64,000 nt of DNA from a virus (IMGVR_UViG_3300049846_001597:8313-72312); one strand, 5' to 3'; shown: positions 22,966-62,634, numbered from the stretch's first letter. The notes: generated by a model from the letters alone, not told the origin. Translations and numbers: made by a program.

Positions 22966-24021
22966 CTACGCCGCCTCATCGCGGCCTTCCGCCGCCAGAG
23001 CCGCTTGCAGCGCCGCCAGGAGGCCAAGCAGCGGGCCTTTGCCACGGATCATCTCGCTCAGAGCTTGCTCGAAAGATTGGCCGCGCTGCTCAGCCGTTTC
23101 GCGAATGCGATCCACAAGATGCTTCAAGAACGGGTCTGCGCCAGATTGGACGCCCGTGATGTCGCCGCCGCCAACCCATGCTGCGGCCTGCGCCTGGGGG
23201 CCGGTGAGGCCGCGCTCTTTGCCGAGTGACTTGTAGTAATCGGCAAGCGCGCCATACTCGCTGTCTAAGCCTTTGCCGCCCCACCATGACGGCTGCTCTA
23301 GCGCCTCATCTATGTCGATGAGGCCCATGTGGTAAGCTTGGCGCGGATTGAATTGCTCGCCCTCAAACGTCACCGGATTTTTGCCGTTCTTCAAAAAACG
23401 CGGGTCGGCAGAAAAGATCGACGGCAGCGCCAGCGCGTGACTGTCTATGGTCACTGGTTCATGGTTGCCTGCAAGGTTCTCAGCGTAGCTTGCGGTCTTC
23501 GGTCCAGTGATCGGAGAGAAGCCGCCATCGTCCATGCGGTCCATCAGTTGCCGGTGGACGCCGCCTGCAAAGTGACCGTAGCCTTCAGGCGGGACCGGGC
23601 GCGACTCACCTGCGCGATCTGCGCCATAAAACAGTGAGGCGCGTTTGATCTGAGTCGCTACATCAGAGCGCGGACTGGTGGCGGCGTTGAAGTCGATAAA
23701 GCGCCGAAACGCCGTTTGTCCTTCCTCGGGGCCAAGCTCAGCGATGAACGCTGCTAGAAGCGGGCGCGTGTCGTACCATTGATCTGCGCCCATCTCGACG
23801 CCGCGATCAATAGTGTCGAGCATGCGGGAGCGAACGTTTGAATTGTTGATGAGGTCGAGCATGCGATCCGGCACGCGGCGCGGACTCGCATAAGCCAGCG
23901 CCTTTTGTTCGCCGAAGGCTTGGCCGGTGAGATTGTCGAGCAGCGCCGTGTCGGCGCCGCCATACTCAATAGCCTCACGCAACGCGGCTACGAGGCGCGG
24001 GAGGGAGGGGGCTTTAGGCAT
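22966..24021 (-). CDS. Polyvalent-protein-type domain (DUF7178/HhH-like), stand-alone
   Basis: QWYD...AATSP...PKTASYAENLAG..VTIDSHA...EY...QAQAAAW; family recalled from memory. Confidence 0.55.
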   Translation of the reverse strand: MPKAPSLPRLVAALREAIEYGGADTALLDNLTGQAFGEQKALAYASPRRVPDRMLDLINNSNVRSRMLDTIDRGVEMGADQWYDTRPLLAAFIAELGPEEGQTAFRRFIDFNAATSPRSDVATQIKRASLFYGADRAGESRPVPPEGYGHFAGGVHRQLMDRMDDGGFSPITGPKTASYAENLAGNHEPVTIDSHALALPSIFSADPRFLKNGKNPVTFEGEQFNPRQAYHMGLIDIDEALEQPSWWGGKGLDSEYGALADYYKSLGKERGLTGPQAQAAAWVGGGDITGVQSGADPFLKHLVDRIRETAEQRGQSFEQALSEMIRGKGPLLGLLAALQAALAAEGRDEAA

Positions 24022-24919
24022 CTTCGCTCGCTTTCGCGCCAACGCCTGCGCCCGCCAACGCGATCAGCAACATCGCGAGGCGCTTGCGCAATTCCTCAAG
24101 CGAGATTTTGCGACCGTCTACACCTTCGTTGTAAACCCATTCGGGCAGGAGGCCGACTTTCTGATCGGCATAAACCGTATCTTCCTGACTGGCGGTGCGG
24201 TTCTTTGCGCCGAAGGGGCCGTAATTCACCCACGAGTTTTGCCCGCGCGTTTCAGCGGTCAGCGCAGGCAGCGCCATATCGGAGAACATGCCGCGATGAT
24301 GGCGGAAGGCGTTCTCTTCGCCGCCAGCGCGGAAAGTCGCGCCAATCGGCGCGTGACCGAAGGCGTCATGCACGGCGCGGAACGCATCGTTTCGGGTAAA
24401 CGGCGCGCCGCCGAATGCGCGCCGCCCAAAACCGCGCACCGGCTCCAACAGCGGATTGAGCACCGCCTCATTGATCGAACCGAAACCGTCTTCGCTGGGA
24501 AAGACAGAAAGATGCTGGTTCTCGCGCAAATCCGCGAGCGCTGCTGCTGGCGTGTCGTAGGGGCTGCCGCCCTTCGGGATGAAGTCGAATTTGTAACCTT
24601 TGTCGAGCAACAGATCGAGCTGATCCAAGGTTTCGTCGCCCATCGCGCCCCAGGAAGCGCGCACCAGCGGGTCGGATGGATCGTTGACCATCGCGTCATA
24701 GGCGGCGGCGATGCGCGCGCCGCGTTCAGGATCAGCCGCAGCCCAATGCGTCGGGCGCTCGCCGCCGAGGCCCATGCCATCGGCGTAGCTGTCTGCAATC
24801 AAGCGTAGCCGTGCATTTGGACGCACATGCGTAGGCGAGCCAACGAGCGGCGCCTTGGCCGCCAGGACAGCTTCCAGCGCCGCCCTGAGGCTAGACCCGG
24901 AGGGACGCATACCAACCAC
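24014..24919 (-). CDS. Polyvalent-protein-type domain with zincin-like HDxxGH..E motif
   Basis: NDAFRAVHDAFGH...GEENAF..H...ETRGQNSWVN. Confidence 0.55.
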   Translation of the reverse strand: MVGMRPSGSSLRAALEAVLAAKAPLVGSPTHVRPNARLRLIADSYADGMGLGGERPTHWAAADPERGARIAAAYDAMVNDPSDPLVRASWGAMGDETLDQLDLLLDKGYKFDFIPKGGSPYDTPAAALADLRENQHLSVFPSEDGFGSINEAVLNPLLEPVRGFGRRAFGGAPFTRNDAFRAVHDAFGHAPIGATFRAGGEENAFRHHRGMFSDMALPALTAETRGQNSWVNYGPFGAKNRTASQEDTVYADQKVGLLPEWVYNEGVDGRKISLEELRKRLAMLLIALAGAGVGAKASEDA

Positions 24920-25962
24920 TAGGTCGCCTCGCTTTCCATCTCACGCTGAAGCGCTTGGCGCACTGCGCCCATCGAGAGGCCGAGGCCGCCCATAGCGGTG
25001 GCGATCTTGAAGAAATTGGCGAGACGCTGCACCTCGCTATTGTTGCGGCGGTCGCGATACTTGCCCCACAAGCCCTCGCCGCGCACCAGCGTCTTGGCGA
25101 GCGGCGTATCGAGTGCGGAGAAGGGGGCGGGGCCAGAGCGAATGTCGGCCAGCGACTTATAGGCGTTTTTCTCGGCCCAACGCGCCAGCGCCTCGCCAAG
25201 CTCGCGCTTGTAGACGCTCAACGCGGCGTGATCGCGGATAACTTCTGGGTTGCTGAGGGCGTAGTCGTAATACTGACGCATCTCAACCATCGCCGCTTTA
25301 TTGGCGGGCGTCGGGTCGCTCCAGTAGGCTTCCTCGGCGTCGGCAAGCATCCGCTTCAGCGCGGGCATCTTGTCGTCCACCGACTCGGTGACGATGCGGG
25401 AAGCGCGAGCGCTATCGATGGAGGTTCCCCACGGAACGCCTTTGCGATTGTACGCGACGGCGTGCTGGGCCTCATGCGCAAGCTGATAAGGCACTTGTTC
25501 GCCGGGCTCCAAGCGCGCACGCTCGGTGCCAAGGCGAATGTTGATGTCACCATTGTCGTACACCTCGGCTACGCCGCCGCCGCGTTGCTCTGGATCGAGA
25601 ATGAGCTGAATGCGGTCCCGTAAGCTCTTAGGCAGCGGCGCGCCCGTCACAAACGCATCGAGGTCGCCTGCATTGAAGCCTGCGAGATCGGCCTCCGACA
25701 TATCGGTTGTCATCCGCGCATCGGCCCACGAGCGCGGGCCTAGCCAGACGCCGGTATTGTCGAGGTCGGGCGACAGCGTGAGGCCGGTTTCATCCCAGAC
25801 GCGATCTTGGTCCCAGCCGCTTTCCAGCATGCTTTGCGCCCGCTGGGCGGCGCGCGAACGCGGGCTCACCGGATAAAGCATGCCTGCGGCGTTGGGATCG
25901 ACCGTGGTCGCCTCCAACAGCGCACGCAGGGCGCTCATAAGCGGACGAGGGGCGGCGGCCAC
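24919..25962 (-). CDS. LPD23-like domain plus HExxH metallopeptidase
   Basis: AQSMLESG...VWDETG; LAHEAQHAV; Y.R.LGE..AR. Confidence 0.6.
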   Translation of the reverse strand: MAAAPRPLMSALRALLEATTVDPNAAGMLYPVSPRSRAAQRAQSMLESGWDQDRVWDETGLTLSPDLDNTGVWLGPRSWADARMTTDMSEADLAGFNAGDLDAFVTGAPLPKSLRDRIQLILDPEQRGGGVAEVYDNGDINIRLGTERARLEPGEQVPYQLAHEAQHAVAYNRKGVPWGTSIDSARASRIVTESVDDKMPALKRMLADAEEAYWSDPTPANKAAMVEMRQYYDYALSNPEVIRDHAALSVYKRELGEALARWAEKNAYKSLADIRSGPAPFSALDTPLAKTLVRGEGLWGKYRDRRNNSEVQRLANFFKIATAMGGLGLSMGAVRQALQREMESEAT

Positions 25963-26472
25963 TTACGCGCCTCCAGTTGGCGGCGCAGGCTCGACATAGA
26001 GCGCGCCAATGACCCTGCGCCCGGCTGCTGTAACCACCGATACATCGGTCGAGGCGAGGTAGGTCTGCGACCCGCCCGCGTTCCCGGCGTCGTCGTAATA
26101 GACGTAATAGGTCTGGCCTCGGGTCACGCCGGTCACACTCCCAGCCGCCAGTGTAGCAGCGGCGGTCGAGCGGGTGTGCTCGGCCACGGTGATGGTGGCG
26201 GAGCTGGCGGAGGTGGCCTCGTAATCCAAAATCTGGCTCTCAGCCGGGGTGTGATAGTAGCCGGTGGTCATGCCAAACATCGCCGCGCGCAGCATCGCTT
26301 CCGCTTCAAACGCAGTCGCGCGCGCTTCGCGCACATGATCTTCGCGCTGGCCGCCGAGGCGGCGGATGATGTCTGTAAACAGACGCACGACATGGCGCTC
26401 AAATTTGCCGCCTCTATCCACCACGCGAATAGCGGCGTTCGGGATGTCGAGGTTGATGAGGGGGTTACTCAC
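25963..26472 (-). CDS. Virion tail-associated protein
   Basis: TITVAEHTR...GSVTG....YYVYYDD; GTG start overlaps the upstream stop. Confidence 0.55.
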   Translation of the reverse strand: MSNPLINLDIPNAAIRVVDRGGKFERHVVRLFTDIIRRLGGQREDHVREARATAFEAEAMLRAAMFGMTTGYYHTPAESQILDYEATSASSATITVAEHTRSTAAATLAAGSVTGVTRGQTYYVYYDDAGNAGGSQTYLASTDVSVVTAAGRRVIGALYVEPAPPTGGA

Positions 26473-26635
26473 TGGCGCGCTCGGCAGCATAGGCGGCGAG
26501 GCCTGCGGGTGCGCCAGCGGAAATCAGGCTCGCAAGATCAAAAACTCTCTCTACGCCGCGCGGCAACGGCACTTCGGGCGCAAGCCGCCCAAGCATATCG
26601 CGCAAGGCGACGCGGAGGAGATCACTGCGGCTCAT
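26465..26635 (-). CDS. 56-aa peptide missing from the ORF track
   Basis: MSRSDLLRVALRDMLGRLAPEVPLPRGVERVFDLASLISAGAPAGLAAYAAERASE; TAATG coupling upstream and GTGAGTAA coupling downstream. Confidence 0.7.
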   Translation of the reverse strand: MSRSDLLRVALRDMLGRLAPEVPLPRGVERVFDLASLISAGAPAGLAAYAAERASE

Positions 26636-27255
26636 TAGTAACGAAACGCTCCGAACTTAGCGGGTTTAAGCTTCACTGTTTTCGCCGCGCGCGGCTGCTT
26701 TAGAAGCGCGCGCTCGGTGCGCGCCTGCTCAATCGTTGTCTCCATCACGCCAGATGGCTCGCGTGTGTGGCTGCGCAAAATCTCTACGCTGTCAGCGACA
26801 CGATCAGGAAACACGACCCTGTGGGTGGCGCGGTTTCGCGACACAAGCGGGTCATCGAGGATATTGACGAAATCGACGCCATCGTACCCCTCGCGGCGGG
26901 CGGCGGATGTTTCTCTCAACATCCAGTCGCGCTGCTTGCCGAGGCTGCCGCGCTGCTTTTCCAGCGCCGGAACATCTACTGCTTTGAACCGGCCACGGAT
27001 GCGCGCCTCGATCACGCGCCCATCGTTTTTATCGCGCGGCGTGTCGCTGTATTTGAGCGCCAAGCGACGGAAGTTGTCGCCTTGCTGACGCGAATTGGTG
27101 AAGAAGACGCCAGCAACAGACCCCGTTCCCATGCGCTTGTCAGCGAGGTTGGGGTCGAAGCTAGTGAACTCCGTATCGCCCGTGCCGTGATACCACGGGC
27201 CGCCATCATCAAGCGCGTCAGCCAGTGCGCGGCGCAGGGGGGCGCTGTCGCTCAT
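26635..27255 (-). CDS. ADP-ribosyltransferase-fold protein (ART-PolyVal-like)
   Basis: WYHGT..F.SFD...GVFFT...GRVIEA...GYDGV...VVF. Confidence 0.7.
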   Translation of the reverse strand: MSDSAPLRRALADALDDGGPWYHGTGDTEFTSFDPNLADKRMGTGSVAGVFFTNSRQQGDNFRRLALKYSDTPRDKNDGRVIEARIRGRFKAVDVPALEKQRGSLGKQRDWMLRETSAARREGYDGVDFVNILDDPLVSRNRATHRVVFPDRVADSVEILRSHTREPSGVMETTIEQARTERALLKQPRAAKTVKLKPAKFGAFRY

Positions 27256-28706: not shown

Positions 28707-28712
28707 GGCTTA

Positions 28713-28811
28713 TTATGCCGGAGCGCTGCATAGTGCGATGATGAGCGCCAGACCGGCGAGCATCAGCCACTTCCACGGAACCAGCTGATGCCACGGATAC
28801 CTAGTACCCAT
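28713..28811 (-). CDS. 32-aa single-TM peptide
   Basis: MGTRYPWHQLVPWKWLMLAGLALIIALCSAPA fills the gap after the ejection genes. Confidence 0.45.
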   Translation of the reverse strand: MGTRYPWHQLVPWKWLMLAGLALIIALCSAPA

Positions 28812-30075
28812 AAGCATCCATCAGCTCACGCTCGTAGTCGTTTTCGCGGCGTGCAAGAATTGGGGTGTCACCGAAGAAAGCAGCGTTGCTGAAGCCTTCG
28901 CCCACGGCTTCGGGACCGGCGCGACCGAGGCGGCCAGTCTCGCGATGCGAGAGGAGGCGAATAAGCTCCTGCGTGAGCTTGGAATTGGCTGGCGCATTAA
29001 GCGCGTCGAGGACACCTTGGTTTTCGGCGACATCAATGCTCGTGAGCGGACGGAAGTTGCCGCGTCCGCGCCGAATGATGTTTGAGGCAGCCGAACCGTA
29101 ATTGTGCATCAGCACGTCGCGCACCAATTCGAGATTGTTGTCGCCGGTTGTGTTGCGCAGCCGCGCCGCCTGCGCCGCGCCTTGTGGCAAGTCGCCGCCA
29201 GCCGCCTGCCATTGCGCGCGATAAGACGGCGGCGCATTGGGCATTTCGAGCGCCTCTATCACGCGCGCGCCCTCAGGGGCGCGATTGATGCGTTGTGCGA
29301 CGCCAGCGATGTCGTCGCCTGCCGCGCCCATTGCGCGGTCCAGTGCATTGACGGTGTGACCGTTCACGCGCGGCGCGCCGGGCGTACGACCAAGCCCTAT
29401 TTTCATGCCGATAGCGTGAGCCGGAATGCGCGCTAGTGCGTTGATGGCGGGGCCGAGCAACGCAGCGCTCCCGCCTGAAAACGCTGCGTTGAGCGGCATA
29501 TTGGCGAGCCTATTATCGAAGCCTCGCTGACCCGGCAGCATGCCGCCTTCGGCGGAGCCGTAGCCATAAAGTGCGCCCATTGGCGCGCCAACCAACCCCG
29601 CCGTCAACGCTTGCCGACGCCAGCCCGCGAACCCACGTTGCGCGCCGCGCGACAGAAAGTTGGCAATTGGGCGACCTAGCCGCCCAGCTTGCGCCGCGCG
29701 CCCTAACGCTGCGCCAGGAAACACAAAGCTTCCCGCTGCGCCAATAAAGGCGCCAGCGTTCGTCCACCCCTCTCGTGTTGCGCGGTAGTGAGCAAGATCA
29801 TTGCGCGCGCGACGGACGCCATCGCGGAAACCGCTTTGGAAGTCGCCGCCAGACGCCATCGAGAGGAGGCCATTAAGTCCGCCCATAGCTTCGTCGCCTA
29901 AACCGAAGCTAAAGGCATCCATCGCGCCAGCGCGAACAGCGTGCGCGCGATCAACCCATTCGGAGCGACGGGGGGTAGGTGGGCCGCCGTCATCAAGCCA
30001 CTGCGTTTGCGCAGGTCCGCGCGCTGGCGGCGCAACCTGCGGTGGCTGCTGTTGATCCAACCATTCCGTTGTCAT
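28801..30075 (-). CDS. Putative ejection (internal virion) protein
   Basis: DAFSFGLGDE motif and Gly/Ala hydrophobic helices; third of three coupled genes. Confidence 0.65.
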   Translation of the reverse strand: MTTEWLDQQQPPQVAPPARGPAQTQWLDDGGPPTPRRSEWVDRAHAVRAGAMDAFSFGLGDEAMGGLNGLLSMASGGDFQSGFRDGVRRARNDLAHYRATREGWTNAGAFIGAAGSFVFPGAALGRAAQAGRLGRPIANFLSRGAQRGFAGWRRQALTAGLVGAPMGALYGYGSAEGGMLPGQRGFDNRLANMPLNAAFSGGSAALLGPAINALARIPAHAIGMKIGLGRTPGAPRVNGHTVNALDRAMGAAGDDIAGVAQRINRAPEGARVIEALEMPNAPPSYRAQWQAAGGDLPQGAAQAARLRNTTGDNNLELVRDVLMHNYGSAASNIIRRGRGNFRPLTSIDVAENQGVLDALNAPANSKLTQELIRLLSHRETGRLGRAGPEAVGEGFSNAAFFGDTPILARRENDYERELMDAYGY

Positions 30076-32165
30076 CGGCTGCGCGCCCCGTTCGCGCGCA
30101 CGACGCCCCGGCGACCGTCGCGGGTGCGGAAATAGATGTCACGCCCGCTGCGATTGGCGCGCGCCTGCATATCGCGTTCTTCGCGGCTGCCTGCCCATGC
30201 ATCGGCATTGACCGGCACCTCAACCGGGTAGCCCTCAACCGCGCCTTGCTCTTGTGCGTCGCCGTGACGAACGAAGGCCCAATGCGGTTCCGATGATTGC
30301 GCATCGAAACGGAAGAAATCGCCGGTTTGCGGAACCTGTACTTCACGACCGTCTTGCGGCGCATCCGCCAAAATCGCCCAATTGGCTTGCGTGTATGGAC
30401 GCAGCGCCGTGCGTTCGACCTCTGACCAGCGGCGACCTTGCGCATCAACGCCGCGCTGAAGCGAGCCCGCTTCGTAGATGAACTGACGACGCGCGGAAGA
30501 TAGCGCGCGCGAACCGAGGAGGGCGGCGCGTGATTTACGCAAGAAATTGATCGCAGACTCCAGCGTCCATTGGCCGGAAACGATGCCGCGCAAAGCCGCC
30601 TGACGTTCGCCTTCTGAGATCGGCTGCAAGCCTTGCAGTGCTTGCAGCAACAGCGGCCACGTATTAGATTGAATGTCTTCCAGTAGCGCTTGGCGGCCCG
30701 TTGAGCCAGCAAGGCGCGCCAAATCTGTGTTCATGTTATCCGGCAGGATAGTGCCGTTTTCGCTATTACGGGCGAGCGACATAAAAGCCGCCTCAAGCGA
30801 GTCAAGGCTGTAAAGCGCCTGTTCACGCTGATCTTCCGCCGCGAAATTTCGTTCGTAAATTTGAATTTCACCCGGCGTCGGCTCCGCGTACCCAGGCGAC
30901 TGACCGGCGCGGGCGCGCTGCCCTTCCCGATTGCGGTAGTTCTCATCGAGGCGCTGCGCGTAGGTCAGCGTCATCTGCTCAAGCGCATCGAGTTCGCTGT
31001 CTTGGATGCCGTCGCGACCAAGGTTTTGCAGCATCGGCATGATGTCATCGGCGAGCAGCGGTTGACCGTTGGTGTCATAAGCATACGGCGTGTTTTGCAG
31101 CCAATGCATCGCCACCGGCAGACGCTGCTGCTCGGGGATGCGACGCAACGCCGTCACCATCTGTTGCGAGAACTGTAAGCGCGCGCCGAAAAGATCGACA
31201 GCGGTGGCGCGCTCATCGTCCATCAGCGCCGAGATGCGCTCTAGGCCATCCAGGTCGCCCATCGACATGGCTTCCTCGCGCAATCCAGCGAGGATGCTCA
31301 TGTTTTGAGTGAGCTGCGGCGGAGCCGCCTGCATGATAGCTTGCTCTAAACCTTGGAAGCCACCATCAGCAGGCGGGCCGGTGGGTGCGGGTGCGGCTGC
31401 GGCGGCAGGCGTCGGCCCGCCTGTAATGGGGCCGGTCGGCGCGACGGCTTGCGCTTCCAGGGGTCGAGCGTTGTCCAGCAGTATGCGCGCAGCATCGTCG
31501 CCGTTATATGTGCTTGGGCCAGCTTCTGGCTCATAAGGGTTTGCATACGGCGTGGGGTCGGGCTGAGCGGCGCCCGGTGACGCCGTGTTCACGCCGGAGC
31601 GCGCCCGCAAAGCCGCCGCAGAGGGCGTGTCAAAGACCATGCCGTCGCCGCGTGCGCCGCCCGGCTGGTAAGCCTCATTGAACTGCATTAGCCCGAGGCG
31701 CTCCGTCCATGACGGCGCAAGCGGCGTCTGCTGAATATCGGTTTGCGGCGGCGGCGCAGTCACGACTTGCGGCTGCGCCGAGGGTTGCGGTTGCTGCGGC
31801 AAGCCGGGGCCACCCGGTTGGCCGGGTGCGATTTGCATCTCGGGGCCAGAGTAGGGCGTGGCCGGGACTTGCGGCAGCTGCGGGGCCTGCGGGGCAGGCG
31901 CCGTCTTCAGCAACGCATTGCGCTCATTATCCGCGCGCCAGTCATAGCGGTTCGGCAGGAACACATTCTGGCGCGCCCAGGCATAATGATCGGGCTCGTT
32001 GACGTCCAAGAAGCTGTTGAGGCTGTCTTCCAGTTGACGCGGGTCGCGCGAAGCGAGCGCGTTGCGCATGCTGCGCATGGCGCGACCCTGGTTGGCGCGT
32101 CGTTGACGCCGCTCGCCGTGGTCGTAACCTTCGCGGAAGGCGCGGCCATAATCATAGACTGCCAT
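30072..32165 (-). CDS. Putative ejection (internal virion) protein
   Basis: Pro/Gln-rich disordered N-half, helical C-half; position. Confidence 0.6.
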   Translation of the reverse strand: MAVYDYGRAFREGYDHGERRQRRANQGRAMRSMRNALASRDPRQLEDSLNSFLDVNEPDHYAWARQNVFLPNRYDWRADNERNALLKTAPAPQAPQLPQVPATPYSGPEMQIAPGQPGGPGLPQQPQPSAQPQVVTAPPPQTDIQQTPLAPSWTERLGLMQFNEAYQPGGARGDGMVFDTPSAAALRARSGVNTASPGAAQPDPTPYANPYEPEAGPSTYNGDDAARILLDNARPLEAQAVAPTGPITGGPTPAAAAAPAPTGPPADGGFQGLEQAIMQAAPPQLTQNMSILAGLREEAMSMGDLDGLERISALMDDERATAVDLFGARLQFSQQMVTALRRIPEQQRLPVAMHWLQNTPYAYDTNGQPLLADDIMPMLQNLGRDGIQDSELDALEQMTLTYAQRLDENYRNREGQRARAGQSPGYAEPTPGEIQIYERNFAAEDQREQALYSLDSLEAAFMSLARNSENGTILPDNMNTDLARLAGSTGRQALLEDIQSNTWPLLLQALQGLQPISEGERQAALRGIVSGQWTLESAINFLRKSRAALLGSRALSSARRQFIYEAGSLQRGVDAQGRRWSEVERTALRPYTQANWAILADAPQDGREVQVPQTGDFFRFDAQSSEPHWAFVRHGDAQEQGAVEGYPVEVPVNADAWAGSREERDMQARANRSGRDIYFRTRDGRRGVVRANGARSR

Positions 32166-32938
32166 TAGATGCGCCCAGGTTTAGGCGTGACGCCCTTGGT
32201 GGACGTGACGGTTTGCGTGGGGCCGCCGCCAAAGAAGTTGCCGACCGCCTTGCGGGTGTTATTCCAATTGAAGCCGCCATTGGCGATCTTGGCGCTGATG
32301 CCGCCCAGCGCATTCGAGATCGCCATGCCGCCAGTGGCGGCGGCGTCCTGCAAGCCTTGGCCGCGTTGCAGCGCAATTTGACTAAGCGCGTTGCCCTGAT
32401 TGGCGAAAGCATTGGCGGCCTGACTACCGACACCCATTGCCGCGTTAGCGATGCCGGTGCGTGCGGCGTCGCCGCGATCCACGTAGCCCTTGAGGCCAGT
32501 CAGGTGCGCTTCACGGCCAGCCATCGCCAACTCGTAACCTTGTTGGCCCGCCGCGCGCAGCGCCTTGCCTGAATTGATTGCGCCGCCTTTGCCAAGTGCG
32601 GCGTTGGTGGAAACCAGCGCGTTGTGCGCTTTGGCCGTGTTGTAGTCGGCTTCGTTCTTGTAGAAGGAGCCGTTGTAAGCCGTATTGTACGCGCCCGCTT
32701 GCGAGGGATCGATGCCGAGCGCGCCACGCACCAAATTGTTGGGCGTGGTGCTATCGTTCACCATCGGCTGCATTTGCGCGGTGGCGCGGTCGTAGCCGAG
32801 ATTGAGTTGTTCGATTTGCTTGTCGGTGGCGTACTTCTGCGCATCCGCCGCCATTGCAGCAGAGTCTTTGACGGCGTTGGCTTGGGTCTTGGCGTTAGCC
32901 GCGCCGAAGATGCCCTGGATTACGTCCCCGATGCACAT
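32165..32938 (-). CDS. Putative DNA-transfer/ejection protein (P22 gp7-like)
   Basis: Ala/Gly/Gln-rich; GAANAKTQANA..QKYA; SGKALRA. Confidence 0.7.
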   Translation of the reverse strand: MCIGDVIQGIFGAANAKTQANAVKDSAAMAADAQKYATDKQIEQLNLGYDRATAQMQPMVNDSTTPNNLVRGALGIDPSQAGAYNTAYNGSFYKNEADYNTAKAHNALVSTNAALGKGGAINSGKALRAAGQQGYELAMAGREAHLTGLKGYVDRGDAARTGIANAAMGVGSQAANAFANQGNALSQIALQRGQGLQDAAATGGMAISNALGGISAKIANGGFNWNNTRKAVGNFFGGGPTQTVTSTKGVTPKPGRI

Positions 32939-33383
32939 AAGAAAACAGTCTAAAGGGGTGGCCGTTTATGCTGGCTTCGCCTAGCCAGCTGAAGCCGCAG
33001 GCCTCAATAAAGCGATGATGCATGACGTTACGCTTGTCGGAGGCATTGAGCAGGCAACCCCATTTGCACCCCCACGCACGCACCCAACGCGGCACATGCT
33101 TGAGGGTGAAGTAGCGGGCGCGGCTGACATCATCCGCGCAGAGCATCCAGGGACTTGCGCCGTAAGCGGTTTGCTTCGCGCCAAGAATGGCCAGCACCCG
33201 GCCCGTGGCCACTTCAACCATTGCGCGCGCGTCGCCGGGTTTGGCGAGGTCATCGGTCAGGCGCGCGTAGATGTCGCTCGCGCCAGCCGCTTCTGCTTCG
33301 CGCGCATCTTCAGGCCGCAGCCGCAAAAGCAGATTGACGACATCTTCTTGGTTGGCGCGCCGGAAGGTGAACTTAGCCGCCAA
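32895..33383 (-). CDS. GNAT-fold virion assembly protein (T7 gp13-like)
   Basis: LRPEDAREA...PWML...LLN..D.RN....RF....GF. Confidence 0.75.
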   Translation of the reverse strand: MAAKFTFRRANQEDVVNLLLRLRPEDAREAEAAGASDIYARLTDDLAKPGDARAMVEVATGRVLAILGAKQTAYGASPWMLCADDVSRARYFTLKHVPRWVRAWGCKWGCLLNASDKRNVMHHRFIEACGFSWLGEASINGHPFRLFSYVHRGRNPGHLRRG

Positions 33384-33882
33384 GCTGCTGGAGCTGCTGC
33401 TGGAGCTGCTGGATCATCATGTCGATTTGCTGGGCGCGCGGATCGTCTTCTGGCAGAGATTGGCGCATCTGCGTCAAACGCTCTAGTTGCTCCATGAGCT
33501 GCATCGGGCGTTGCATGACGGTCTGCTGAGGGCGCTGCTCGCGCAAGGCGCGCTCAATCGCCACGCGCAGAGCGCGTGCGCCGCCGCGTGCGCCGCCTGC
33601 GAGCGTACCACCCGCCACACCTAAGACGCCACCCGTCGCGCCGCCCGCGATGGCGTTGCCCATCGTGTCGGTTTCGGAGCCGCCGTTCATGGCGTTGACA
33701 TCAGAGTAGCCCGCGCCCATCGCTGCGCCTAAGCCGACGCCGCCTGCGGCTAAGCCGCGCCCGTTGCGACCCATGAACTCTTCTGCGCCGCCGCGCACGC
33801 CGCGCGTGGTTTGTTCACCAATATCGCCCATTGCTTCACGCAGGAAGCGCAGGAACGTTGAGGATGGAACTGTATCAGCCAT
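33373..33882 (-). CDS. Glycine-zipper protein with Gln-rich tail
   Basis: GxxxG helices GLAAGGVGLGAAMGAG and GGATGGVLGVAGG. Confidence 0.6.
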   Translation of the reverse strand: MADTVPSSTFLRFLREAMGDIGEQTTRGVRGGAEEFMGRNGRGLAAGGVGLGAAMGAGYSDVNAMNGGSETDTMGNAIAGGATGGVLGVAGGTLAGGARGGARALRVAIERALREQRPQQTVMQRPMQLMEQLERLTQMRQSLPEDDPRAQQIDMMIQQLQQQLQQLGG

Positions 33883-35447
33883 TAGGCACCCATTTCACGC
33901 ATGATAGCGCCACGACGCGCCTCGCGGTCTGCAACCGTTGAAATCGCTGCGCCGACCCCGCCCGTTACGAGATAGGGGAGGACAATCGAGAGGGCGTCAG
34001 GCTTCCGCGCCTTTTTGCCTAACCCCGCCTCGCGCAGCGCCGCGTAGACGGTTTGCTCGATGCTGTTGTCGGTTGAGTCGCGGAAGGATGGGTCGCGGCG
34101 CAATTCAGCAATCAGACGCCGCGCGTCGGTCATGCCGCCAGCAATCAGACGCCGCGCTTGATTTTTGGTTGAGAGCTTGTTTCCGCGCCACGGGCGCTGC
34201 GCAAACAGACGCACGCGATCTGGCGTGACATTCCATAGCTTCGCAAGGATGGCCACCGCAGGTTCGCCCGCCGCAACAGCGCGGTCAGCGTACTTAAGCA
34301 GCCGATCCAACTGGACGCCGATAATATTTGCGCCTTCACCCTCATCGTCTCGCAACGATGCTGAGATGTCGGCGCGCTTCGGGTAGAAGCCGCGCTCGTT
34401 CATTGTCGTGGCTTCGTTGACAATATCGGCTTCGTTATACTGCCCGCGTGTTAGCTTGAAGACTTTTTTGACCCCAATCGCCTCGCCAAGTTGCGCCCGC
34501 TCAGCCCGATCTTGCGCTCGCCCTTGTGCGCGCGCGTAACGCTGTTGCGCGGCCTCCGAGTGAGAGGCGCGCTTGGCTTCGATACGCGCAAGTCTGGCGC
34601 GCGCGGCTTCCAGCGCCGCCGCATCGGACGGCGGTCGGTTGTCAAATGCAGGACTTCTGGGTCGATCTGGGATCGGGATGCCCAAGCGCTTGCGCGCATA
34701 CGTCATCGCACCTTTTAGCGCCTCCATCGTCGGAAGCTCGGTGGCGTTGAGCACCTGCTCCATTGTATAAACAGGCCGCCCATCGGGGTGGCGGGCGCTA
34801 TACATGATGATCGCGCGCGCTTTGTTGGCCTTACCTTTCAGCGAAGGATAGCGGTCGAGTAAGACCTTAAAGTCTTCGGGATTGGAGGGTAGCGGCTCCG
34901 CCTGTCGCCCAAGGCCAGCCGCACGCCGCATGCGGCGCGGATCAAACGCAGCGCCGCCAAACAGCACGGAGCCCGCCGAATCTTCATCGAGGTCTTGGCG
35001 CGCAGAGTAGGGGCCAAGATACTCATCGAACATCTCGTCCGATCCGCGCTGGCCTGACTCAAGCACGTCCGCCATGCGAACGGGCGGCAAACCCTTGAGG
35101 GTGTTGACGTCATCCAGCATGCGGCTGGTGTGCTGCGCGAGCGGGCGCGTGGCGTCAGCGACCCGCCGCTGGACGCGCGACATCGATTGTGCTTCCGGGT
35201 CACGGATGTGCATCGCAGGCGAGCGGATGTCAGCTGGCAACGAAGGGCGCAGCGCATTGCGGGCGAGACGCGACAAAACTTGCCGCGCGCCATAGCCGCC
35301 CATCGCTCCGATCATTGCGCCGCCAAGCGCGCCGCTTGCATCGTTCTCGCCAAGCGCGACGCCACCGGTTGCGCCAGCGAGGCCGCCAAGAAGAGGAAAC
35401 GCCGCCTCATCGATTGCGCGGAGGAGCGCGGAACGCAGCGGGTTCAT
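33882..35447 (-). CDS. Glycine-zipper plus multiple HTH-like segments
   Basis: N-terminal GGLAGATGG/GGAMIGAMGG; YTMEQVLNATELPT..., LAKLWNVTPDRV; C-terminal hydrophobic helix. Confidence 0.6.
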   Translation of the reverse strand: MNPLRSALLRAIDEAAFPLLGGLAGATGGVALGENDASGALGGAMIGAMGGYGARQVLSRLARNALRPSLPADIRSPAMHIRDPEAQSMSRVQRRVADATRPLAQHTSRMLDDVNTLKGLPPVRMADVLESGQRGSDEMFDEYLGPYSARQDLDEDSAGSVLFGGAAFDPRRMRRAAGLGRQAEPLPSNPEDFKVLLDRYPSLKGKANKARAIIMYSARHPDGRPVYTMEQVLNATELPTMEALKGAMTYARKRLGIPIPDRPRSPAFDNRPPSDAAALEAARARLARIEAKRASHSEAAQQRYARAQGRAQDRAERAQLGEAIGVKKVFKLTRGQYNEADIVNEATTMNERGFYPKRADISASLRDDEGEGANIIGVQLDRLLKYADRAVAAGEPAVAILAKLWNVTPDRVRLFAQRPWRGNKLSTKNQARRLIAGGMTDARRLIAELRRDPSFRDSTDNSIEQTVYAALREAGLGKKARKPDALSIVLPYLVTGGVGAAISTVADREARRGAIMREMGA

Positions 35448-36043
35448 TGGCGACCTCCACGATTCCGCATCTGCCGCAGCATCGCTTCCGCGATGAGGCG
35501 GGTTTCCTCTTCACCAAGCCGCTCAGCGCGCGCAATACGACGACGAACATCAGCGTGATGCGGCGCACGCTCCATGCGCTCAAGAGTGCGGGCGGCATTA
35601 AAGCTGTCGCCTTTGCCGATGGCCCACGCCGCCTCCGCGCGCGCCGCCTCTTCGCGTAAGCCGATGCGGCGCAAATGGCGGATGTATTTCTGAAAAGCTT
35701 TGACGCTCTCTTTTGCACCCATGCGCAAAAACGAGCTGCGACCAGCCGCCATCCCGCTTAGCGCGCCCAAGGCGGCGGCCCCGCCCACTGTCGCGCCAGC
35801 AAAATTGCGGAAGCCTTCATGCTCGCCCTCAGTCAAATCATAATCAGACAAAGCGCTAACGCCGCCTGCGATGGCGTAGGGGTAAAGCCCAACGGGCAAT
35901 CCGAGCATGCCTCCAACTTGTGCGCCGCCCGCGAGCGCGCCTTCGGCCCGGTCTAGCGCGCCAGACGCCGTGCGTTGCACGCCGCGCATGGCGGCGCGGG
36001 CGCCGTCTTGCAACGCCAATTGGAGGGCGGCCCGCAGACTCAT
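35444..36043 (-). CDS. Glycine-zipper protein
   Basis: GALAGGAQVGGMLG and GATVGGAAALGALSG. Confidence 0.6.
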   Translation of the reverse strand: MSLRAALQLALQDGARAAMRGVQRTASGALDRAEGALAGGAQVGGMLGLPVGLYPYAIAGGVSALSDYDLTEGEHEGFRNFAGATVGGAAALGALSGMAAGRSSFLRMGAKESVKAFQKYIRHLRRIGLREEAARAEAAWAIGKGDSFNAARTLERMERAPHHADVRRRIARAERLGEEETRLIAEAMLRQMRNRGGRQ

Positions 36044-36720: not shown

Positions 36721-36930
36721 TTACATGCCTCCCTTGCCGCCAAAGAGGCCCTTGGGGTTCATAAAAGCGTTCTGCGTCACGCCGGTCGTTGGGCCGCGCG
36801 GATTGGCGCTGGGCGGCTTGATTGCGCCCCCGCCATTACGGCGCTTGCCGCCTTGCGACGGCGCGCCAAACATCTCCGGGTTCTGCATCCAGAATTGGCG
36901 CAGCAGGTGAGGCGGCCACTGATACATCAT
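36721..36930 (-). CDS. Small Gly/Pro-rich protein
   Basis: Coupled ORF. Confidence 0.5.
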   Translation of the reverse strand: MMYQWPPHLLRQFWMQNPEMFGAPSQGGKRRNGGGAIKPPSANPRGPTTGVTQNAFMNPKGLFGGKGGM

Positions 36931-37469
36931 GGACGCTCATCCCATTCATCGGGGTGGTCGTTGCCGGAGTAGCCAACGTAGTCGGTGTTCAGTCTGCTGA
37001 TGATGTCGCGCATGCGTTGTTCGCGCGCGTGCTGGCGGCGGAAGTTGTCGAAGCGCATGCGCCACGTTGAGCGCGAGAAATTCGGCGCATCGTCGGAGAG
37101 ATGCTCGGTCACCGCCTCGTTGCCGCTATTGGCGACGGACAGCTCCGTCATAAGCGCCTCAAGCAAACGGCGTTGCTCGCGGACGGCGCGGCGCTGTTCG
37201 CGCAACGGATCATTGCGCTGTCGCGCATACTCAAGCGCGGCGGTTTGGCCTAAAACCGTCCCGCCAAGAGCAACCGCGAGCGTCGGGCGGATGTCGCGCT
37301 CGAAACTATAGACGCCTCGCTCGCGCTCCATATCGGCAACCGCACGGGCGCGATCTCTTTCGGTGATGTGTCTGCGCCAGCCGCGCCCGAAAGCGCCTCG
37401 GCCATAAGCGCGACGCGGCATATTAGAAAGCGCGTTGTCGGCGGCGGAGCGAAGCAGGCGGCCAATCAC
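36927..37469 (-). CDS. Arg-rich protein with one hydrophobic helix
   Basis: Coupled ORF; TLAVALGGTVLG. Confidence 0.55.
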   Translation of the reverse strand: MIGRLLRSAADNALSNMPRRAYGRGAFGRGWRRHITERDRARAVADMERERGVYSFERDIRPTLAVALGGTVLGQTAALEYARQRNDPLREQRRAVREQRRLLEALMTELSVANSGNEAVTEHLSDDAPNFSRSTWRMRFDNFRRQHAREQRMRDIISRLNTDYVGYSGNDHPDEWDERP

Positions 37470-51608: not shown

Positions 51609-51611
51609 GTG

Positions 51612-52478: not shown

Positions 52479-52910
52479 TTAGTCCTCCGTGATGTCGAGG
52501 TCGCCCGCTGCAAACTGAGGCTGGATGCCAGACGAGACAGCAAGCGATGACGTCAGCGCGCCCTTGTAAAGCACCTTGCCGGTCGAGCTTGAAGCCGTGC
52601 CGACTGCGAAGTGCGTGACCGTCTCCGAACCCCCCGTGCATTGGGGAAACTGAATGATTGCCGTGTTGCTGACGGCGTTGCCGCTAACCGTCCAACCGCC
52701 GCTGTCTCGCGTCACCGCCACGCGCGCATAGGACGTGTAAGCACACTCGCTGGTGGTTTGCGAGCCAGCTTCACCTGGGTCAGCGGTGTGCAAGCTCACA
52801 TAGAGGCTCGTCAGTGGCGACGATGCCGCATTGTCTGCGATGTTGGCGATGGCTGTGCCATTGAAGATCAGCTTCAGCAGATCGTTCTCGAATGTATTGC
52901 CCTTGCTCAT
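52479..52910 (-). CDS. Fibre/decoration-associated structural protein
   Basis: LYVSLHTADPGEAG...SYARVAV...I.FP...THF. Confidence 0.75.
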   Translation of the reverse strand: MSKGNTFENDLLKLIFNGTAIANIADNAASSPLTSLYVSLHTADPGEAGSQTTSECAYTSYARVAVTRDSGGWTVSGNAVSNTAIIQFPQCTGGSETVTHFAVGTASSSTGKVLYKGALTSSLAVSSGIQPQFAAGDLDITED

Positions 52911-59200: not shown

Positions 59201-59496
59201 AGCGTGTCGATGGTGGCGTTATCGGCAATGGTGATATTGGTCCCGCCCCAATACACCGTGATCGTCTGGCCATCGACGCCATCGTCAAAGTTGGTGATTG
59301 TGGTTGAGCCAGCGGTGATGAACTTGGAATTGTCCAGCACCGAGGGGGTCGCGTCGCCGTTCGCAAACGTGCTGGCGACGTCGCCCAGGTTGATGCTGTT
59401 CTGGAGATCGCGCAGCCACCGATCCACGCTCTTGGTGGTTGAGCCGCCACGGGCTCGGGCTAGGCGTTTGGAGACGTCGCGGGCAAGAACTGACAT
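56269..59496 (-). CDS. Tailspike with two pectin-lyase-like beta-helix modules
   Basis: DYGAVGDG.TDDT.AIQ and DFGAVGDG.TDDT.AF; Asn/Gly ladder repeats. Confidence 0.85.
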   Translation of the reverse strand: MSVLARDVSKRLARARGGSTTKSVDRWLRDLQNSINLGDVASTFANGDATPSVLDNSKFITAGSTTITNFDDGVDGQTITVYWGGTNITIADNATIDTLGGGNIMLNALVPQASFRLTSGVWKQTDIGRFYKRHAEDYGAVGDGTTDDTTAIQALLTAGYIWEPLSNKSYFISQRLNITVAGTGIWGDGSATLIMSTVGFNNTTSGSGTRYGTTAVGVYASAIDRPVCRGVRIKYQAQTDDRYVKAVAFRSCTNVTIEYTEAWNFTKALGVLYLGACANGSVSHNHIHDCATDSASTGQISGIEFDNDDTASSYIDCSHNNIHDLTCGASFVTSFGYQTDGINTVKATATHIRMIGNRIYNVGEGIDLASCNGIVATNDIDKCYYFGIKLVHGASRNTINDNFLRRCGLSGVDIDGSSSATQDTADNLVFGNYIYDIDPDGTFSANETAGVRFNANGGTTYLPRRNYVNDNFIDCGTNGKHGVLAASGSGTVNYVLRNRVRRAATALYTLNETVVPFASSANVRDFGAVGDGATDDTAAFEAAITANLCVDIPPGTYVVDVDNLRDYTHLRGAGENVTILKRKSGSTYCLRAASAKTGLVFENFSMEGFQTDSPINQEGISLVNPVKPVFINITGKNLYASFSGSPTGRAISLTGGSGARLFNVTVDTCGDGVLSSGHTDGRIVTLTGSACTRAAVLLAASSHRWRHNGVIANGNCTAYAGAGFMVVDSDDVIGFAPITNSNTLGHGYQQNNGDRCKLYGPVANSNGISGVDWYDSKDGELHGVYATLNTVRGVEIDTDSDRTKVFGGKCVSNTDTDWSVYRSADVELHGVIGNVKIHDGTSTNYTVRTSIFGGGQGYTLTVDSGEALNVRVFGWLGTIADSGGHIVWSGGASGLADTFVSDTAYDATSWNGVTGVAPSKNAVRDQFEALPASQANARDTTNTTKLLTPANVIDVGIFRQLFTLTADMNSTSDQNFTKIGTFSNYLITLIRVHSASTSLTTAAGGVYTGAGKTGSIIAAASQVYTGATNTAGTGQGVSLQTTGSGSLSATPILSLTTAQGSTATATYVIYGIVLS

Positions 59497-59814
59497 GCCC
59501 GCATTATCGCGCGTGCGATCAGCGCGATGGGCTTAGAGGGCGTCGGCCCCTCATAGGAAGTGCAGCCCAATCAGCGCCAGGATCAGGAACGCGAGGATGA
59601 CCAACGCACCGAGGTAACCGTCGCGGGTCATTCTTCAATCAGCTCCGCATGCCCATCGGGATAGATGGTGATCTGACAGGGCGTGATCTCGCCGCCGATC
59701 TCAAGGCCATTGATGACGTAGATGTTGCGTGGATCGGTGTGGGCTACAAGTATGACATAGGGATGCGCCTGCGTTTGGACCGTCACATGGTAGCGGCCCA
59801 AGCGGGCGTAGGGA

Positions 59815-61317
59815 TCAGTAGCCTGTCCAGCTATTGGCCGAGCGGCGTCTGTCGTCGTAGTCGTAATCGTCATAATCAAGCGGCTCCGTGTCCGCGAATC
59901 GGAGCATCATCATCGCGTAGCGCGTAGCCGATAACAAGTCGTCGTCGCGCGCGACGATCTTGACCACAGAGGGGTCGGACTTCATCGGCGCGCGGTGATA
60001 CATGCGGAACTCTTCAAACCACTCGACATTCTGGCTGAAGACCTTGAGGCGGCCCGTACGCATACGGTCGAGCATCATGGTGACGCCAGCCTCAAGCCCG
60101 TTGCCGCCATCAGGGAAGGTGGCGCGCTCGCCCAGCATGCTCAAACCCTGTTCGGCGTATTGGGGCGCTAAGCTCTCGCCTGAACCCTTGTCGTGCTGAA
60201 GCCCGTCATGCGGCCACGAGACTGGCGCCCAGCTGCAATCGACCCAAGAGCGAATAGCAGCGGCGTGCTGCACCGGGGTTTGTTCGCGCACGCGGATCGT
60301 CTTCACCACGTAGACGACATCGGCGTCGTGATCGTAGGCGATATGAACGGCGGCGAACGGGTGGTCCCAGCCGAAGTCGATGCCGATGATGTGCTTCCAG
60401 TGGCGCGGGATTTGAAACGGCTTCACCGTGATCGTCTCTTCATCCACCGGGAAGACTTGGCCCTTGCCCATGAGCGGGATGCCCTGAGCGCGGGCTTTGC
60501 GCTCGTGTGGCGGATAAGAGGCGATGATCGCTGCTCGCTCCTCAGGCGAATAATGGAGCGCGTCATCGATGGTCATTTTGATGACCGTGTGCCGCTGGGC
60601 CGCGAGCGGGTCAATATTCGCTTCATCTTTGGAAATAAAGCGACGCACAACTTGGGACATGCCCAGCAGAGGCGTGAAGGTGATGAAGACCATGCCGCCC
60701 GTGGCGTTGGTGCGGGTCAAGGCTTCCGTGTAGATGTCGGGCGGCGGCTCCTCATCCATCCAGATGAAGTGCAGCGTGTCGCCCTGCCATTTCTCGCGAC
60801 CGCGCTCATAAGACTTGAAGAGGAGGGTGGAGGTGCCGCCCGAGACGTGCCTGACGGTTACGCTGTCGAGCGCATTTGGAACCCCCCGCGCGCTGGTGTA
60901 ATCAACGATACAGTCGCCGGGGATGGCGCCGGTGCCGAAGTTCTCCTCCTGCTCGGGCGGACCAACCAGCAACTTCTGCACCGTGTCGCGCGTCGTCTCT
61001 GATGTGACGCCGCCCGCCCAGCAGCGCACCGGATGGTCGAAGCGTCGGCCCCTCCACCAATCGGGATAGCGCCCGGTCAGATGGATGGCCGTCTCCGCTG
61101 CGCCCGAAAACGTCTTGCCAAGCTGGTTGCCCGCCATGAACAGGCGCTCGCGATACTTGAGGCCCGCGTTGTGGAAGTCGCGTTGCTTGGGGTAGGGCGC
61201 ATAGCACGCCAGCTGATTGCGTTTGGCGCGGCGCTGCCGCTCCGCCAGCAGCTTGGCGAACTCCTCCTTCATCGCACGGACTTGGAGGGCTACCGGATCG
61301 TCCGCCCCATCGGCCAT
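59815..61317 (-). CDS. terL: Terminase large subunit
   Basis: AGNQLGKT Walker A, WMDEEP Walker B, TFTPL.G, GIDFGWDHP nuclease, DDLLSATRY. Confidence 0.95.
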   Translation of the reverse strand: MADGADDPVALQVRAMKEEFAKLLAERQRRAKRNQLACYAPYPKQRDFHNAGLKYRERLFMAGNQLGKTFSGAAETAIHLTGRYPDWWRGRRFDHPVRCWAGGVTSETTRDTVQKLLVGPPEQEENFGTGAIPGDCIVDYTSARGVPNALDSVTVRHVSGGTSTLLFKSYERGREKWQGDTLHFIWMDEEPPPDIYTEALTRTNATGGMVFITFTPLLGMSQVVRRFISKDEANIDPLAAQRHTVIKMTIDDALHYSPEERAAIIASYPPHERKARAQGIPLMGKGQVFPVDEETITVKPFQIPRHWKHIIGIDFGWDHPFAAVHIAYDHDADVVYVVKTIRVREQTPVQHAAAIRSWVDCSWAPVSWPHDGLQHDKGSGESLAPQYAEQGLSMLGERATFPDGGNGLEAGVTMMLDRMRTGRLKVFSQNVEWFEEFRMYHRAPMKSDPSVVKIVARDDDLLSATRYAMMMLRFADTEPLDYDDYDYDDRRRSANSWTGY

Positions 61318-61956
61318 TTAGTTGGCTTTGGTGGTCGGCTGTAGGATCGTGAGCGCCGCCGACAGTTGGCTGGACATCTCGGCCAGCTTCTTGTCCAGCG
61401 CCTCGTCGGTCAGCTCAGCGAACTCAGAGACGCGCACGTCCACTTGCTGCGGCAGCACCTTGATTGCGCCGTTGAAATACACATCCGGCTTATTCTCAAA
61501 GACCCACTGGATCGCGGCCCGGCCATTCTCTAGCCAGTGCGAGTAGAAGTCCGAGAAGAACTCTTCAGCGATCTTATTGCGCGAGCCCTTGGGGCGACCC
61601 GGCCCAGGTTTGCCGCCCTTTACAAAACGCGGGCGCTCATCTGGCTCGATGGTGACGAGAACAGCGTCACCGAGGTCTTCCTCGGTCGGCCCACAGGTGG
61701 TGTCATCCTCATCGGGGATGTCGTGGACCTCTTCGGGAATATCGCTCTCTATAGGCTCGTTAGGCGCATCGTGGCTAACTTGCGGTAGACCCTTGGTGTT
61801 CACTCCTTGGCTGCGCATGAGCCACTCGTGGGCTTTAGCGCTATCGCCTGGGGCTGAGCTGGTCTTGGTCTTCGGTGTCTTTGAGGGCGACGCTTTCTTA
61901 GCGTTGGTCTTACTGACCGTGGGCTTCTTGAGCGACGCCACTTTCTTCGTGGCCAT
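61318..61956 (-). CDS. terS: Terminase small subunit
   Basis: F.KG..PGPGRPKGSRNK; immediately upstream of terL. Confidence 0.75.
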   Translation of the reverse strand: MATKKVASLKKPTVSKTNAKKASPSKTPKTKTSSAPGDSAKAHEWLMRSQGVNTKGLPQVSHDAPNEPIESDIPEEVHDIPDEDDTTCGPTEEDLGDAVLVTIEPDERPRFVKGGKPGPGRPKGSRNKIAEEFFSDFYSHWLENGRAAIQWVFENKPDVYFNGAIKVLPQQVDVRVSEFAELTDEALDKKLAEMSSQLSAALTILQPTTKAN

Positions 61957-62142
61957 TGGTCTTCTCCGTGTCGCTTAGAATAAGCGGGGAGAAGTTGATG
62001 CTGGGTTTATGGGTTGGGATCGCGGCTCATGGCTTTTTTGATGCGCGCGGCCACCATTGGCCCATACACATCTTCAAGCCACCCAATGTAATCATCTTCC
62101 AGCGCAGCGCGGTTACGCTCGGCTACGGAAGACGCCACCACA

Positions 62143-62634
62143 TTAGCCTTCTCCACTCCGATTACGCCGCCTGATCGCTTCCATCTCTCTGACGAGACGC
62201 GAGAGCGAGCGGGGGCCGGAGAGCTTGCGATAAGGAGCGTGCGAGCGGGCGCGTCCAGCTTCGTCGCTCATGGCGGCCAAGCGAATGAGCGCGTGATAAG
62301 TAGCGAGCTTGGCGCGCTCCGCCTCAAGCAGCTGCTTGCGATTGACGAGCCGCGTCCAGGGCATCGGCGTCCAGGCCATGTCGCCATAGACGTCATCGGC
62401 CATATCGGCTGAGGAGCCCTCAAGGCGTTGACCCACTGGATCGACATCGTTCAGCATGCCGATCTCGTTGGCCGGGACATCGCGGCCCGTGCGCCAATCG
62501 TCTGGATCGGGCGTGAAGCTAAAAGCGTCGCGGCGGTTGAGGTGCGGCAACGAGCCATCCGGCATCGATTGCAAAGCGATGTTGCGCTCCAGCGTGCGGA
62601 GCAGAGCCTGACGGAGGGAGGGTAGGCGCGCCAC
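62143..62634 (-). CDS. Hypothetical protein with the LRxAL N-terminal motif
   Basis: MARLPSLRQALLRTLE; coupled ORF. Confidence 0.6.
   Translation of the reverse strand: MARLPSLRQALLRTLERNIALQSMPDGSLPHLNRRDAFSFTPDPDDWRTGRDVPANEIGMLNDVDPVGQRLEGSSADMADDVYGDMAWTPMPWTRLVNRKQLLEAERAKLATYHALIRLAAMSDEAGRARSHAPYRKLSGPRSLSRLVREMEAIRRRNRSGEG

Follow-up and report, generated by a model that had tools for sequence, protein, structure and literature searches.

N-terminal capsid-targeting peptides are an established concept in bacteriophages T4 and P1. Here we compare with them a short helix that recurs at the ends of about ten unrelated proteins encoded in a 64,000-nucleotide stretch of viral DNA (hereafter the window), which comprises bases 8313-72312 of the 72.3-kb IMG/VR virus record IMGVR_UViG_3300049846_001597 (CheckV completeness 86%). 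T4 is a myovirus with a scaffold core; its Alt protein is an ADP-ribosyltransferase, and its head protease (gp21) removes the capsid-targeting sequence (CTS) at a conserved site. The CTS is a short N-terminal peptide on unrelated, non-essential internal proteins (IPI-III and Alt), and it suffices to load foreign proteins in T4 (PMC9024508; PMC8402733). In P1, capsid targeting needs no more than the first 30 residues of DarB, which bring this large polyvalent-type anti-restriction protein, or a reporter, into the capsid (PMC9024508), and the proteins DarA-Hdf attach to the inner capsid surface (PMC12810830). Among podoviruses, the P22 ejection proteins are loaded via N-terminal parts, with the scaffold being required and the portal not (PMC8402733), and in cyanophage A4 the N-terminal helix of gp29 intercalates the helices of the portal barrel, the remainder of the protein being disordered (PMC12002296). 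A tag common to about ten proteins would offer a direct handle on the question of how podoviruses select the proteins that are loaded into the head and exported through the tail.

On the evidence of sequence, we consider it most likely that the shared terminal helix is an address tag, so far undescribed, for proteins that the particle carries and injects together with the DNA. By its layout it can be likened to the T4 CTS, since an N-terminal peptide common to unrelated proteins is found here too, from the genes alone. Unlike the CTS, the motif here also stands at C-termini and internally; about ten cargo genes carry it, in tail-hub and ejection operons, and scans of 30 window proteins, a part of the genes only, in each of Pfam and PHROGs turned up no head protease family. 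P1 has one signal on one protein and a stepwise pathway, whereas here one motif occurs on many proteins and is repeated at the C-terminus. The polyvalent proteins (Iyer et al., 2017; PMC5512222) draw on the same repertoire (ART-PolyVal, LPD23-like, zincin-like peptidase, ParB-like), and delivery with the DNA is the role proposed for them as well. They unite 2 to 15 disparate domains in a polypeptide, however, while the window has separate single-domain genes with end tags of their own; in the accessible text of that paper the term “packaging signal” is absent and four mentions of “N-terminal helix” concern domain folds. Podovirus ejection proteins (P22 gp7/16/20; T7 gp14-16 and gp6.7; A4 gp26-29) share the adaptor-to-nozzle gene position and the Gly-rich hydrophobic stretches (PMC8402733; PMC12002296; PMC11784390), but the accessible parts of these sources report no motif common to them, whereas here enzymes unrelated to channel formation have one. 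The MuF polymorphic toxins of temperate phages likewise combine a constant N-terminal head-morphogenesis part with a variable C-terminal effector (PMC5576092), yet their constant part is a whole MuF domain (SPP1 gp7-like), and no such Pfam family was found in the ten tagged and ten flanking proteins of the window. A full-text literature search, to which supplementary files were external, returned no description of the motif or of two-ended tags.

The core of the helix is L-R-x-A-L-x-x-x-L, and the motif is real, terminal and under selection as protein. Codon-usage gene calling gave 103 genes in the full record which, together with a 56-aa open reading frame (ORF), make up the 104 proteins analysed. 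Over the first 20 start positions of each protein (2,080 N-terminal positions), the pattern LR.AL matches six times against an expectation of 0.11, compared with one match at 19,058 internal positions; a looser 10-residue pattern matches seven times at N-termini and once internally, and internal matches amount to 0-1 per pattern except for the “mid” pattern (2) and L[RVM].AL (3). With a matrix built from relatives only, the seven best of 20,826 positions in the genome (15.8-22.3) are residues 1-9 of seven of the proposed proteins, namely those starting at 62143, 33882, 26635, 26465, 24919, 35444 and 24014, a ranking that is partly circular because the input hits of this matrix had originally been chosen by a window-derived one. 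Among 551 six-frame ORFs of at least 45 aa, seven reach 15 bits or more at the N-terminus, all of them proposed genes; in 200 residue-shuffled proteomes, N-termini scoring at least 12 number 0.08 on average and 1 at most, versus seven observed; and no early gene scores with the motif matrix. De novo motif finding in the relatives' N-termini recovered A-L-R-R-A-L-A-E-R-L; the resulting matrix, in which orthologous N-termini (the gp10-like protein's among them) blurred the signal, ranked the window poorly and was replaced by the later matrices. At the nucleotide level, the ten tags have a mean identity of 44% and a longest common word of 10 bases, their third codon positions are least alike (34%), and synonymous Leu and Arg codons are mixed among them; since the codons vary, selection is seen to act at the protein level. 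A Tat or Sec signal was ruled out by inspection, the tags being charged amphipathic helices without a hydrophobic core.

A model's earlier reading of the DNA, which we call the sequence-only reading, had listed ten tagged N-termini with non-homologous bodies and had staked the motif on its being more frequent there than in shuffled, internal or early-gene sequence. This enrichment was found, the ten N-termini lie on the minus strand where they had been placed, and all-against-all BLASTP produced no clustering of the ten bodies with each other. The number of about ten was borne out firmly for seven; the other three score low with the relatives-only matrix. The best tag in the genome (22.3) belongs to a 163-aa protein without a hydrophobic stretch, encoded upstream of the terminase genes (62143..62634). 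Next in score are a 521-aa protein with three Gly-rich hydrophobic stretches (33882..35447; 21.1; FAM17), whose ortholog at the relative locus L009 has the same tag, and a 206-aa ART-PolyVal-like protein with a YHGT motif (26635..27255; 20.0), which is devoid of a C-terminal hydrophobic module. The ART fold claimed for the latter has a Pfam match behind it (E 1.7e-4), although one below the curated cut-off (22.8 versus 31.2 bits). A “tag-only” protein of 56 aa (26465..26635; 19.3) consists of an N-tag and a C-terminal hydrophobic module and nothing else. The 199-aa protein encoded directly after the adaptor gene (35444..36043; 16.2) has two Gly-rich hydrophobic stretches, and a 301-aa protein of phrog_3170 with an HDxxGH motif (24014..24919; 15.8) has a C-terminal Gly/Ala hydrophobic stretch.

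The 347-aa zincin-like protein (24919..25962; 18.7) had been taken for a metallopeptidase, for which its HExxH motif speaks, whereas its LPD23 match is weak. In its C-terminal module a VRQALQ helix comes after a GLGLS stretch, so that the protein ends in G-L-G-L-S-M-G-A-V-R-Q-A-L-Q, and both this module and HExxH are invariant in the three family members found (the protein itself and two homologs). In the source gene call the protein begins at Met9, and its tag then starts at residue 2, a position shared with several other members. A search of representative sequences with this peptidase gave four matches only, one of them a spurious repeat protein, and no sign of the domain in giant proteins. 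The three weaker members are a 351-aa DUF7178 protein (22966..24021; PF23802, 28.2 bits; phrog_3842) with V instead of R in its tag (9.7) and a tag-resembling Leu/Ala helix at its C-terminus (12.1); a possible member of 180 aa (36927..37469; 8.4 only); and a Gly-rich protein of 169 aa (33373..33882) with the degenerate tag FLRFL, an N-terminal score below 7 and a second tag-like helix around residue 100. An ESM Atlas search with the proteins at 33882-35447 and 24014-24919 yielded nothing usable. Translational coupling, also part of the sequence-only reading, applies to 22966-27255 and 33373-36043, where stops and starts overlap or abut, and in part to 62143-62634, which overlaps its upstream gene by one base (62634) but lies 186 bases from its downstream gene.

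Comparison with relatives indicates that the tag is retained when the cargo is exchanged. We aligned 22 homologs of the gp10-like nozzle protein and took six viral and 13 metagenomic loci, two of the latter duplicating viral ones. At loci whose gp10-like proteins are 52-63% identical, genes around the nozzle gene and after the adaptor gene begin with the same helix, for example S-A-L-R-R-A-L-A-E, and a matrix of the ten tags, applied to 190 ORFs of the relatives, gives 13 N-terminal matches of at least 12 bits versus 0.89 expected from the internal rate. One of the loci (L008) belongs to a complete 66.9-kb genome with terminal repeats and 100 genes (G001). With a window-only matrix, eight of the ten best matches among its 18,305 positions are N-terminal and lie in the tail-hub, ejection and portal-scaffold modules. 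The six proteins marked in this way are two encoded before and one after the nozzle gene, one after the adaptor gene, one of 331 aa between portal and scaffold, and one of 163 aa right after the portal. By BLASTP, 20 of the 104 window proteins match this genome (gp10-like protein 55%, capsid protein 66% and portal 44% identity), and none of them is tagged; in the all-against-all clustering, 33882-35447 is the only one of the ten to join a protein of a relative. Because the relatives have the same helix on different cargo and the tagged proteins are without a match in G001, the tag has been conserved during cargo turnover. This agrees with the proposal of a portable protein-level tag on interchangeable cargo in structural operons, for which conservation of the motif despite cargo turnover had been set as a test beforehand.

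The description of the tagged genes as insertions needs amendment, however, as one tagged family, FAM9, belongs to the conserved core of the ejection-protein operon: its gene is located directly after the adaptor gene in relatives, and the protein contains two invariant copies of the motif. In its six members (34-48% identical to the first sequence), I3, P4, S6, A7, L8, R9, R10, A11, L12 and E14 are invariant, as are L81, R82, A84, L85 and A86 of the second copy, and the tag is the most constrained part of these orthologs. The positional equivalent in the window is 33373..33882, for which hhalign aligns the tag only (13 columns, probability 76%), and no relation was found by hhalign between FAM9 and 35444-36043. 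An AlphaFold2 model of FAM9 is of low confidence (pLDDT 57). The slot after this gene is occupied in different relatives by three unrelated small proteins: L010:1004-1429 (acetyltransferase-like, phrog_1249), L003:783-1310 (“head morphogenesis”, phrog_651) and, in the window, 32895-33383 (“internal virion protein”, phrog_308). Cultured phages are distant, with gp10-like proteins at most 30% identical. Megablast and a tblastn search with the 697-aa protein gave no match in a phage collection, and no relative came from a search of genome contigs or a single-protein scan of viral contigs.

The tag had been regarded as purely N-terminal. The N-terminal helix stands, but most cargo proteins of the relatives, and several of the window, also have a C-terminal module, so that the tag is two-ended, a feature that is new here. 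In the relatives the cargo is bookended: the cargo domain is followed by an uncharged Gly/Ala-rich stretch and then, at the extreme C-terminus, by a helix of the same type, typically T-L-R-E-A-L-x-D-R-x-G, which was found in 17 proteins. N-tags of the relatives favour R at +2 (8 of 22), and the C-tags mostly read LREAL. The window has diverged versions of this module, in the peptidase at 24919 and in the similar stretches with which the proteins at 24014, 26465 and 22966 end; uncharged Gly-rich stretches of at least 13 aa occur in seven of the ten tagged proteins versus 19 of the 94 others. In an AlphaFold2 model of a relative's ART cargo, the core is confident and the terminal helices (residues 3-17 and 158-168) are on low-confidence linkers.

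A search with the last 49 residues of a relative's ART cargo found 41 proteins, 20 of them with ART-PolyVal. The L-R-x-A-L tail is kept in the closest seven only; the rest have Lys-rich or other tails together with different leaders, and several of these divergent leaders resemble the tail of their own protein. In lower-GC lineages (P0049-P0082), the ART-PolyVal cargo has a leader of the M-A-G-L-L-D-Y type, a hydrophobic stretch and a Lys-rich tail. For 30 proteins (of 53) that are non-redundant by their termini, the two ends were compared by their best 8-mer score: the mean is 16.1 for ends of one protein and 14.07 for mismatched ends, and 31 of 10,000 permutations reach the former value; because the tested proteins are related, this count is indicative only and not a clean probability. 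It gives an indication that, from lineage to lineage, the motifs at start and end change jointly. In MW202573.1 (L028), a P22-like sequence of 34.6 kb, a 679-aa ART-bearing protein (15617-17656) sits between the adaptor and gp10-like genes, and one 7-residue pattern matches twice in all six frames, once at each end of this protein. The record annotates it as a “DNA repair protein”.

Judging by profile matches, the cargo domains are of the polyvalent-protein kind: ART-PolyVal, zincin HExxH and ParB-like. The ART-PolyVal match of 22.8 bits in 26635-27255 is complemented by one of 31.9 bits in the relative L005:9437-9940, which lies above the cut-off of 31.2. In a Foldseek search with the model of a relative's ART protein, the top matches were ADP-ribosyltransferases (Arr, tankyrase/PARP), with a best E of 0.035 and none at or below 0.001. 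A ParB_N match in a relative's cargo is weak, and the 331-aa cargo of G001 matches internal parts of PHROG profiles that are 1,664-3,431 positions long. Cargo proteins of the window are single-domain ORFs of 56-521 aa, and the relatives additionally have proteins of two to four modules and 445-604 aa. In three multi-module proteins (L003:7548-9362, L008:11368-12705 and L013:5870-7528), the modules are joined by a recurring Gly-rich linker (P-D/N-A/G-G-G, often then Q). This linker differs from the end tags and could serve as a hinge or be a site of cleavage.

What could such a tag do? In the reading that we prefer, it would mark the variable internal virion proteins, that is, accessory ejection proteins and polyvalent-type enzyme effectors (ADP-ribosyltransferase, zincin-like peptidase, ParB-like and others). 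Within the assembling particle, one conserved component would read the motif, so that any protein bearing it would enter the head and leave with the DNA; candidate readers, in no order of preference, may be the interior of the procapsid (scaffold or capsid protein), the portal barrel or the ejection-protein core. Incorporation into the virion, ejection and the nature of the reader are what we infer here, and the docking or address reading, in which the motif brings a variable group of internal proteins to the particle under assembly, is given a little under an even chance. Support is seen in the confinement of the tags to structural operons, their retention while the cargo turns over, and cargo domains of the kind predicted to be injected. 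Several points weigh against this assignment. Among non-homologous proteins, tags are no more similar within a lineage (11.2) than between lineages (11.7), which shows no within-clade co-drift with a partner. In the portal, the long helical region at the C-terminus is weakly conserved between the window and G001, a poor fit to a conserved tag; a simple loading tag needs no motif at both ends, yet this arrangement occurs even in a genome with a single such protein; and three of the ten members are weak. A complex prediction with the probable scaffold (42745-43845), the capsid protein, the phrog_308 protein and the 56-aa partner, run as four chains without alignments and so unlike the tool's calibration, scored 0.12 against a mark of 0.34, which speaks neither for nor against binding.

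The presence of the motif at both ends allows another explanation, in which the tags are self-complementary connectors: N- and C-helices would pair between molecules, and the effectors, the 56-aa protein and FAM9 would form a chain or ring, a non-covalent equivalent of a polyvalent protein that stays on the ejection core and is threaded out sequentially. This is possible, though not probable. It would account for the same motif at both cargo ends in relatives, for the 56-aa protein being two end modules only, for the two invariant copies in FAM9 and for the differing preferences of N-tags (R at +2) and C-tags (LREAL). A connector sequence specific to each lineage would also explain the joint change of start and end motifs, and in MW202573.1 the only two matches of the pattern are the two ends of one ART-bearing protein. 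Yet a multivalent reader, such as the 12-fold portal or the capsid lattice, accounts for equal ends equally well, the helix-helix pairing is hypothetical, the C-module is absent from 26635-27255 and 62143-62634, and the permutation count has the limit given above. The fuller version, with the end helices as universal connectors through which effectors, the tag-only mini-protein and the two-motif core protein join head to tail and are threaded through the tail ahead of the DNA, we regard as unlikely; if it were true, single effector genes could be swapped without packaging having to evolve anew. We also think it unlikely that the motif acts after ejection, with the amphipathic Arg-rich helix and the Gly-rich hydrophobic stretch directed to the host inner membrane, an entry channel or one host factor, and with packaging resting on other parts of the proteins. 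The enrichment of uncharged Gly-rich stretches in tagged proteins, common to the ejection protein at 28801-30075, fits such a role, as does the membrane-anchor-like layout of hydrophobic stretch and Lys-rich tail in the ART cargo of other lineages, and P22 gp7 without its first 20 residues functions nearly as well (PMC8402733). On the other hand, a host-directed motif should not have to change jointly at both ends between lineages, two tagged proteins are without a hydrophobic stretch, and the C-terminal stretches of 13-19 residues are short for a membrane span.

An improbable option is that the motifs are processing sites or their relics, i.e., cleavage or junction marks of a past or present polyprotein, recognised by the encoded zincin-like peptidase and with no addressing role. 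Processing by zincin-like peptidases has been proposed for polyvalent proteins (PMC5512222), whose kinds of domain recur here; moreover, tandem tags about 20 residues apart stand at the start of larger cargo (L008:11368-12705, L003:7548-9362), and an internal copy is seen around residue 130-140 in proteins of L004 and L017. The multi-module cargo of relatives (552-604 aa), however, has the motif at the polypeptide ends and uses the P-D/N-A/G-G-G linker at its joints, a site at residue 1-9 or 13 residues from the C-terminus has little to release, the invariance in orthologs speaks against a relic, and the scans mentioned above found no head protease family. A signal in DNA or RNA (a recombination linker or translation element) or an artefact of GC-rich composition is scarcely credible, even though the genome is about 61% G+C, with Ala, Leu and Arg abundant, and the genes are tightly coupled: the low nucleotide identity of the tags, with their short common word and dissimilar third positions, rules out the former, while the internal-position counts and shuffled proteomes, together with the six-frame ORFs, rule out the latter.

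If the helix is an address tag, it would offer a rule for spotting injected anti-defence effectors in the genomes of uncultured phages and would suggest a way of getting foreign proteins into podovirus particles in laboratory strains. It would also connect the “polyvalent protein” strategy, as predicted, with a version divided among separate genes.

Family scans point to a podovirus arrangement on the minus strand. They assign the large terminase (59815-61317), a pectate-lyase tailspike of 1,075 aa (56269-59496), the portal of 994 aa (52922-55906), a GP4 fiber-I-like protein (52479-52910), a probable acidic scaffold (42745-43845) and the capsid protein (40742-41659). The untagged core also includes the SU10-type head-tail adaptor (36040-36717; PF24175, E 3.2e-15) and the P22 gp10-like nozzle or “needle head” (27252-28706; phrog_578, E 1e-58; PF11134; PDB 7eeq and 9vyg). 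From adaptor to nozzle, the adaptor gene is followed by tagged genes, then by phrog_308, phrog_598, the large proteins and gp10-like, so that these tagged genes sit with gp14/15/16-like genes, as podovirus ejection proteins do. Four ejection-complex-like genes in 28801..33383 have no N-terminal matrix match: an internal virion protein (32895-33383; phrog_308), a “DNA ejection” protein (32165-32938; phrog_598, weak here and E 4.9e-15 in a relative), a large protein without a family (30072-32165) and a large ejection protein with a Gly-rich uncharged stretch (28801-30075; FAM3).

Some minor features of the core genes were recorded as well. The source gene call of the gp10-like gene begins 20 residues inside the longest ORF. 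The portal has a Gly/Pro/Gln-rich insertion around residues 600-690 and a C-terminal region of about 250 residues that is charged and helical, weakly conserved and about 100 residues longer than in G001. A 338-aa protein (21935-22951) and the tailspike form one BLAST family with 330-aa and 600-870-aa proteins of the relatives, and the two likely have a common module, perhaps an attachment domain. Beside the GP4 fiber-I-like gene lie two neighbouring paralogs (50715-51608, 297 aa, and 51612-52478, 288 aa; BLAST family 19).

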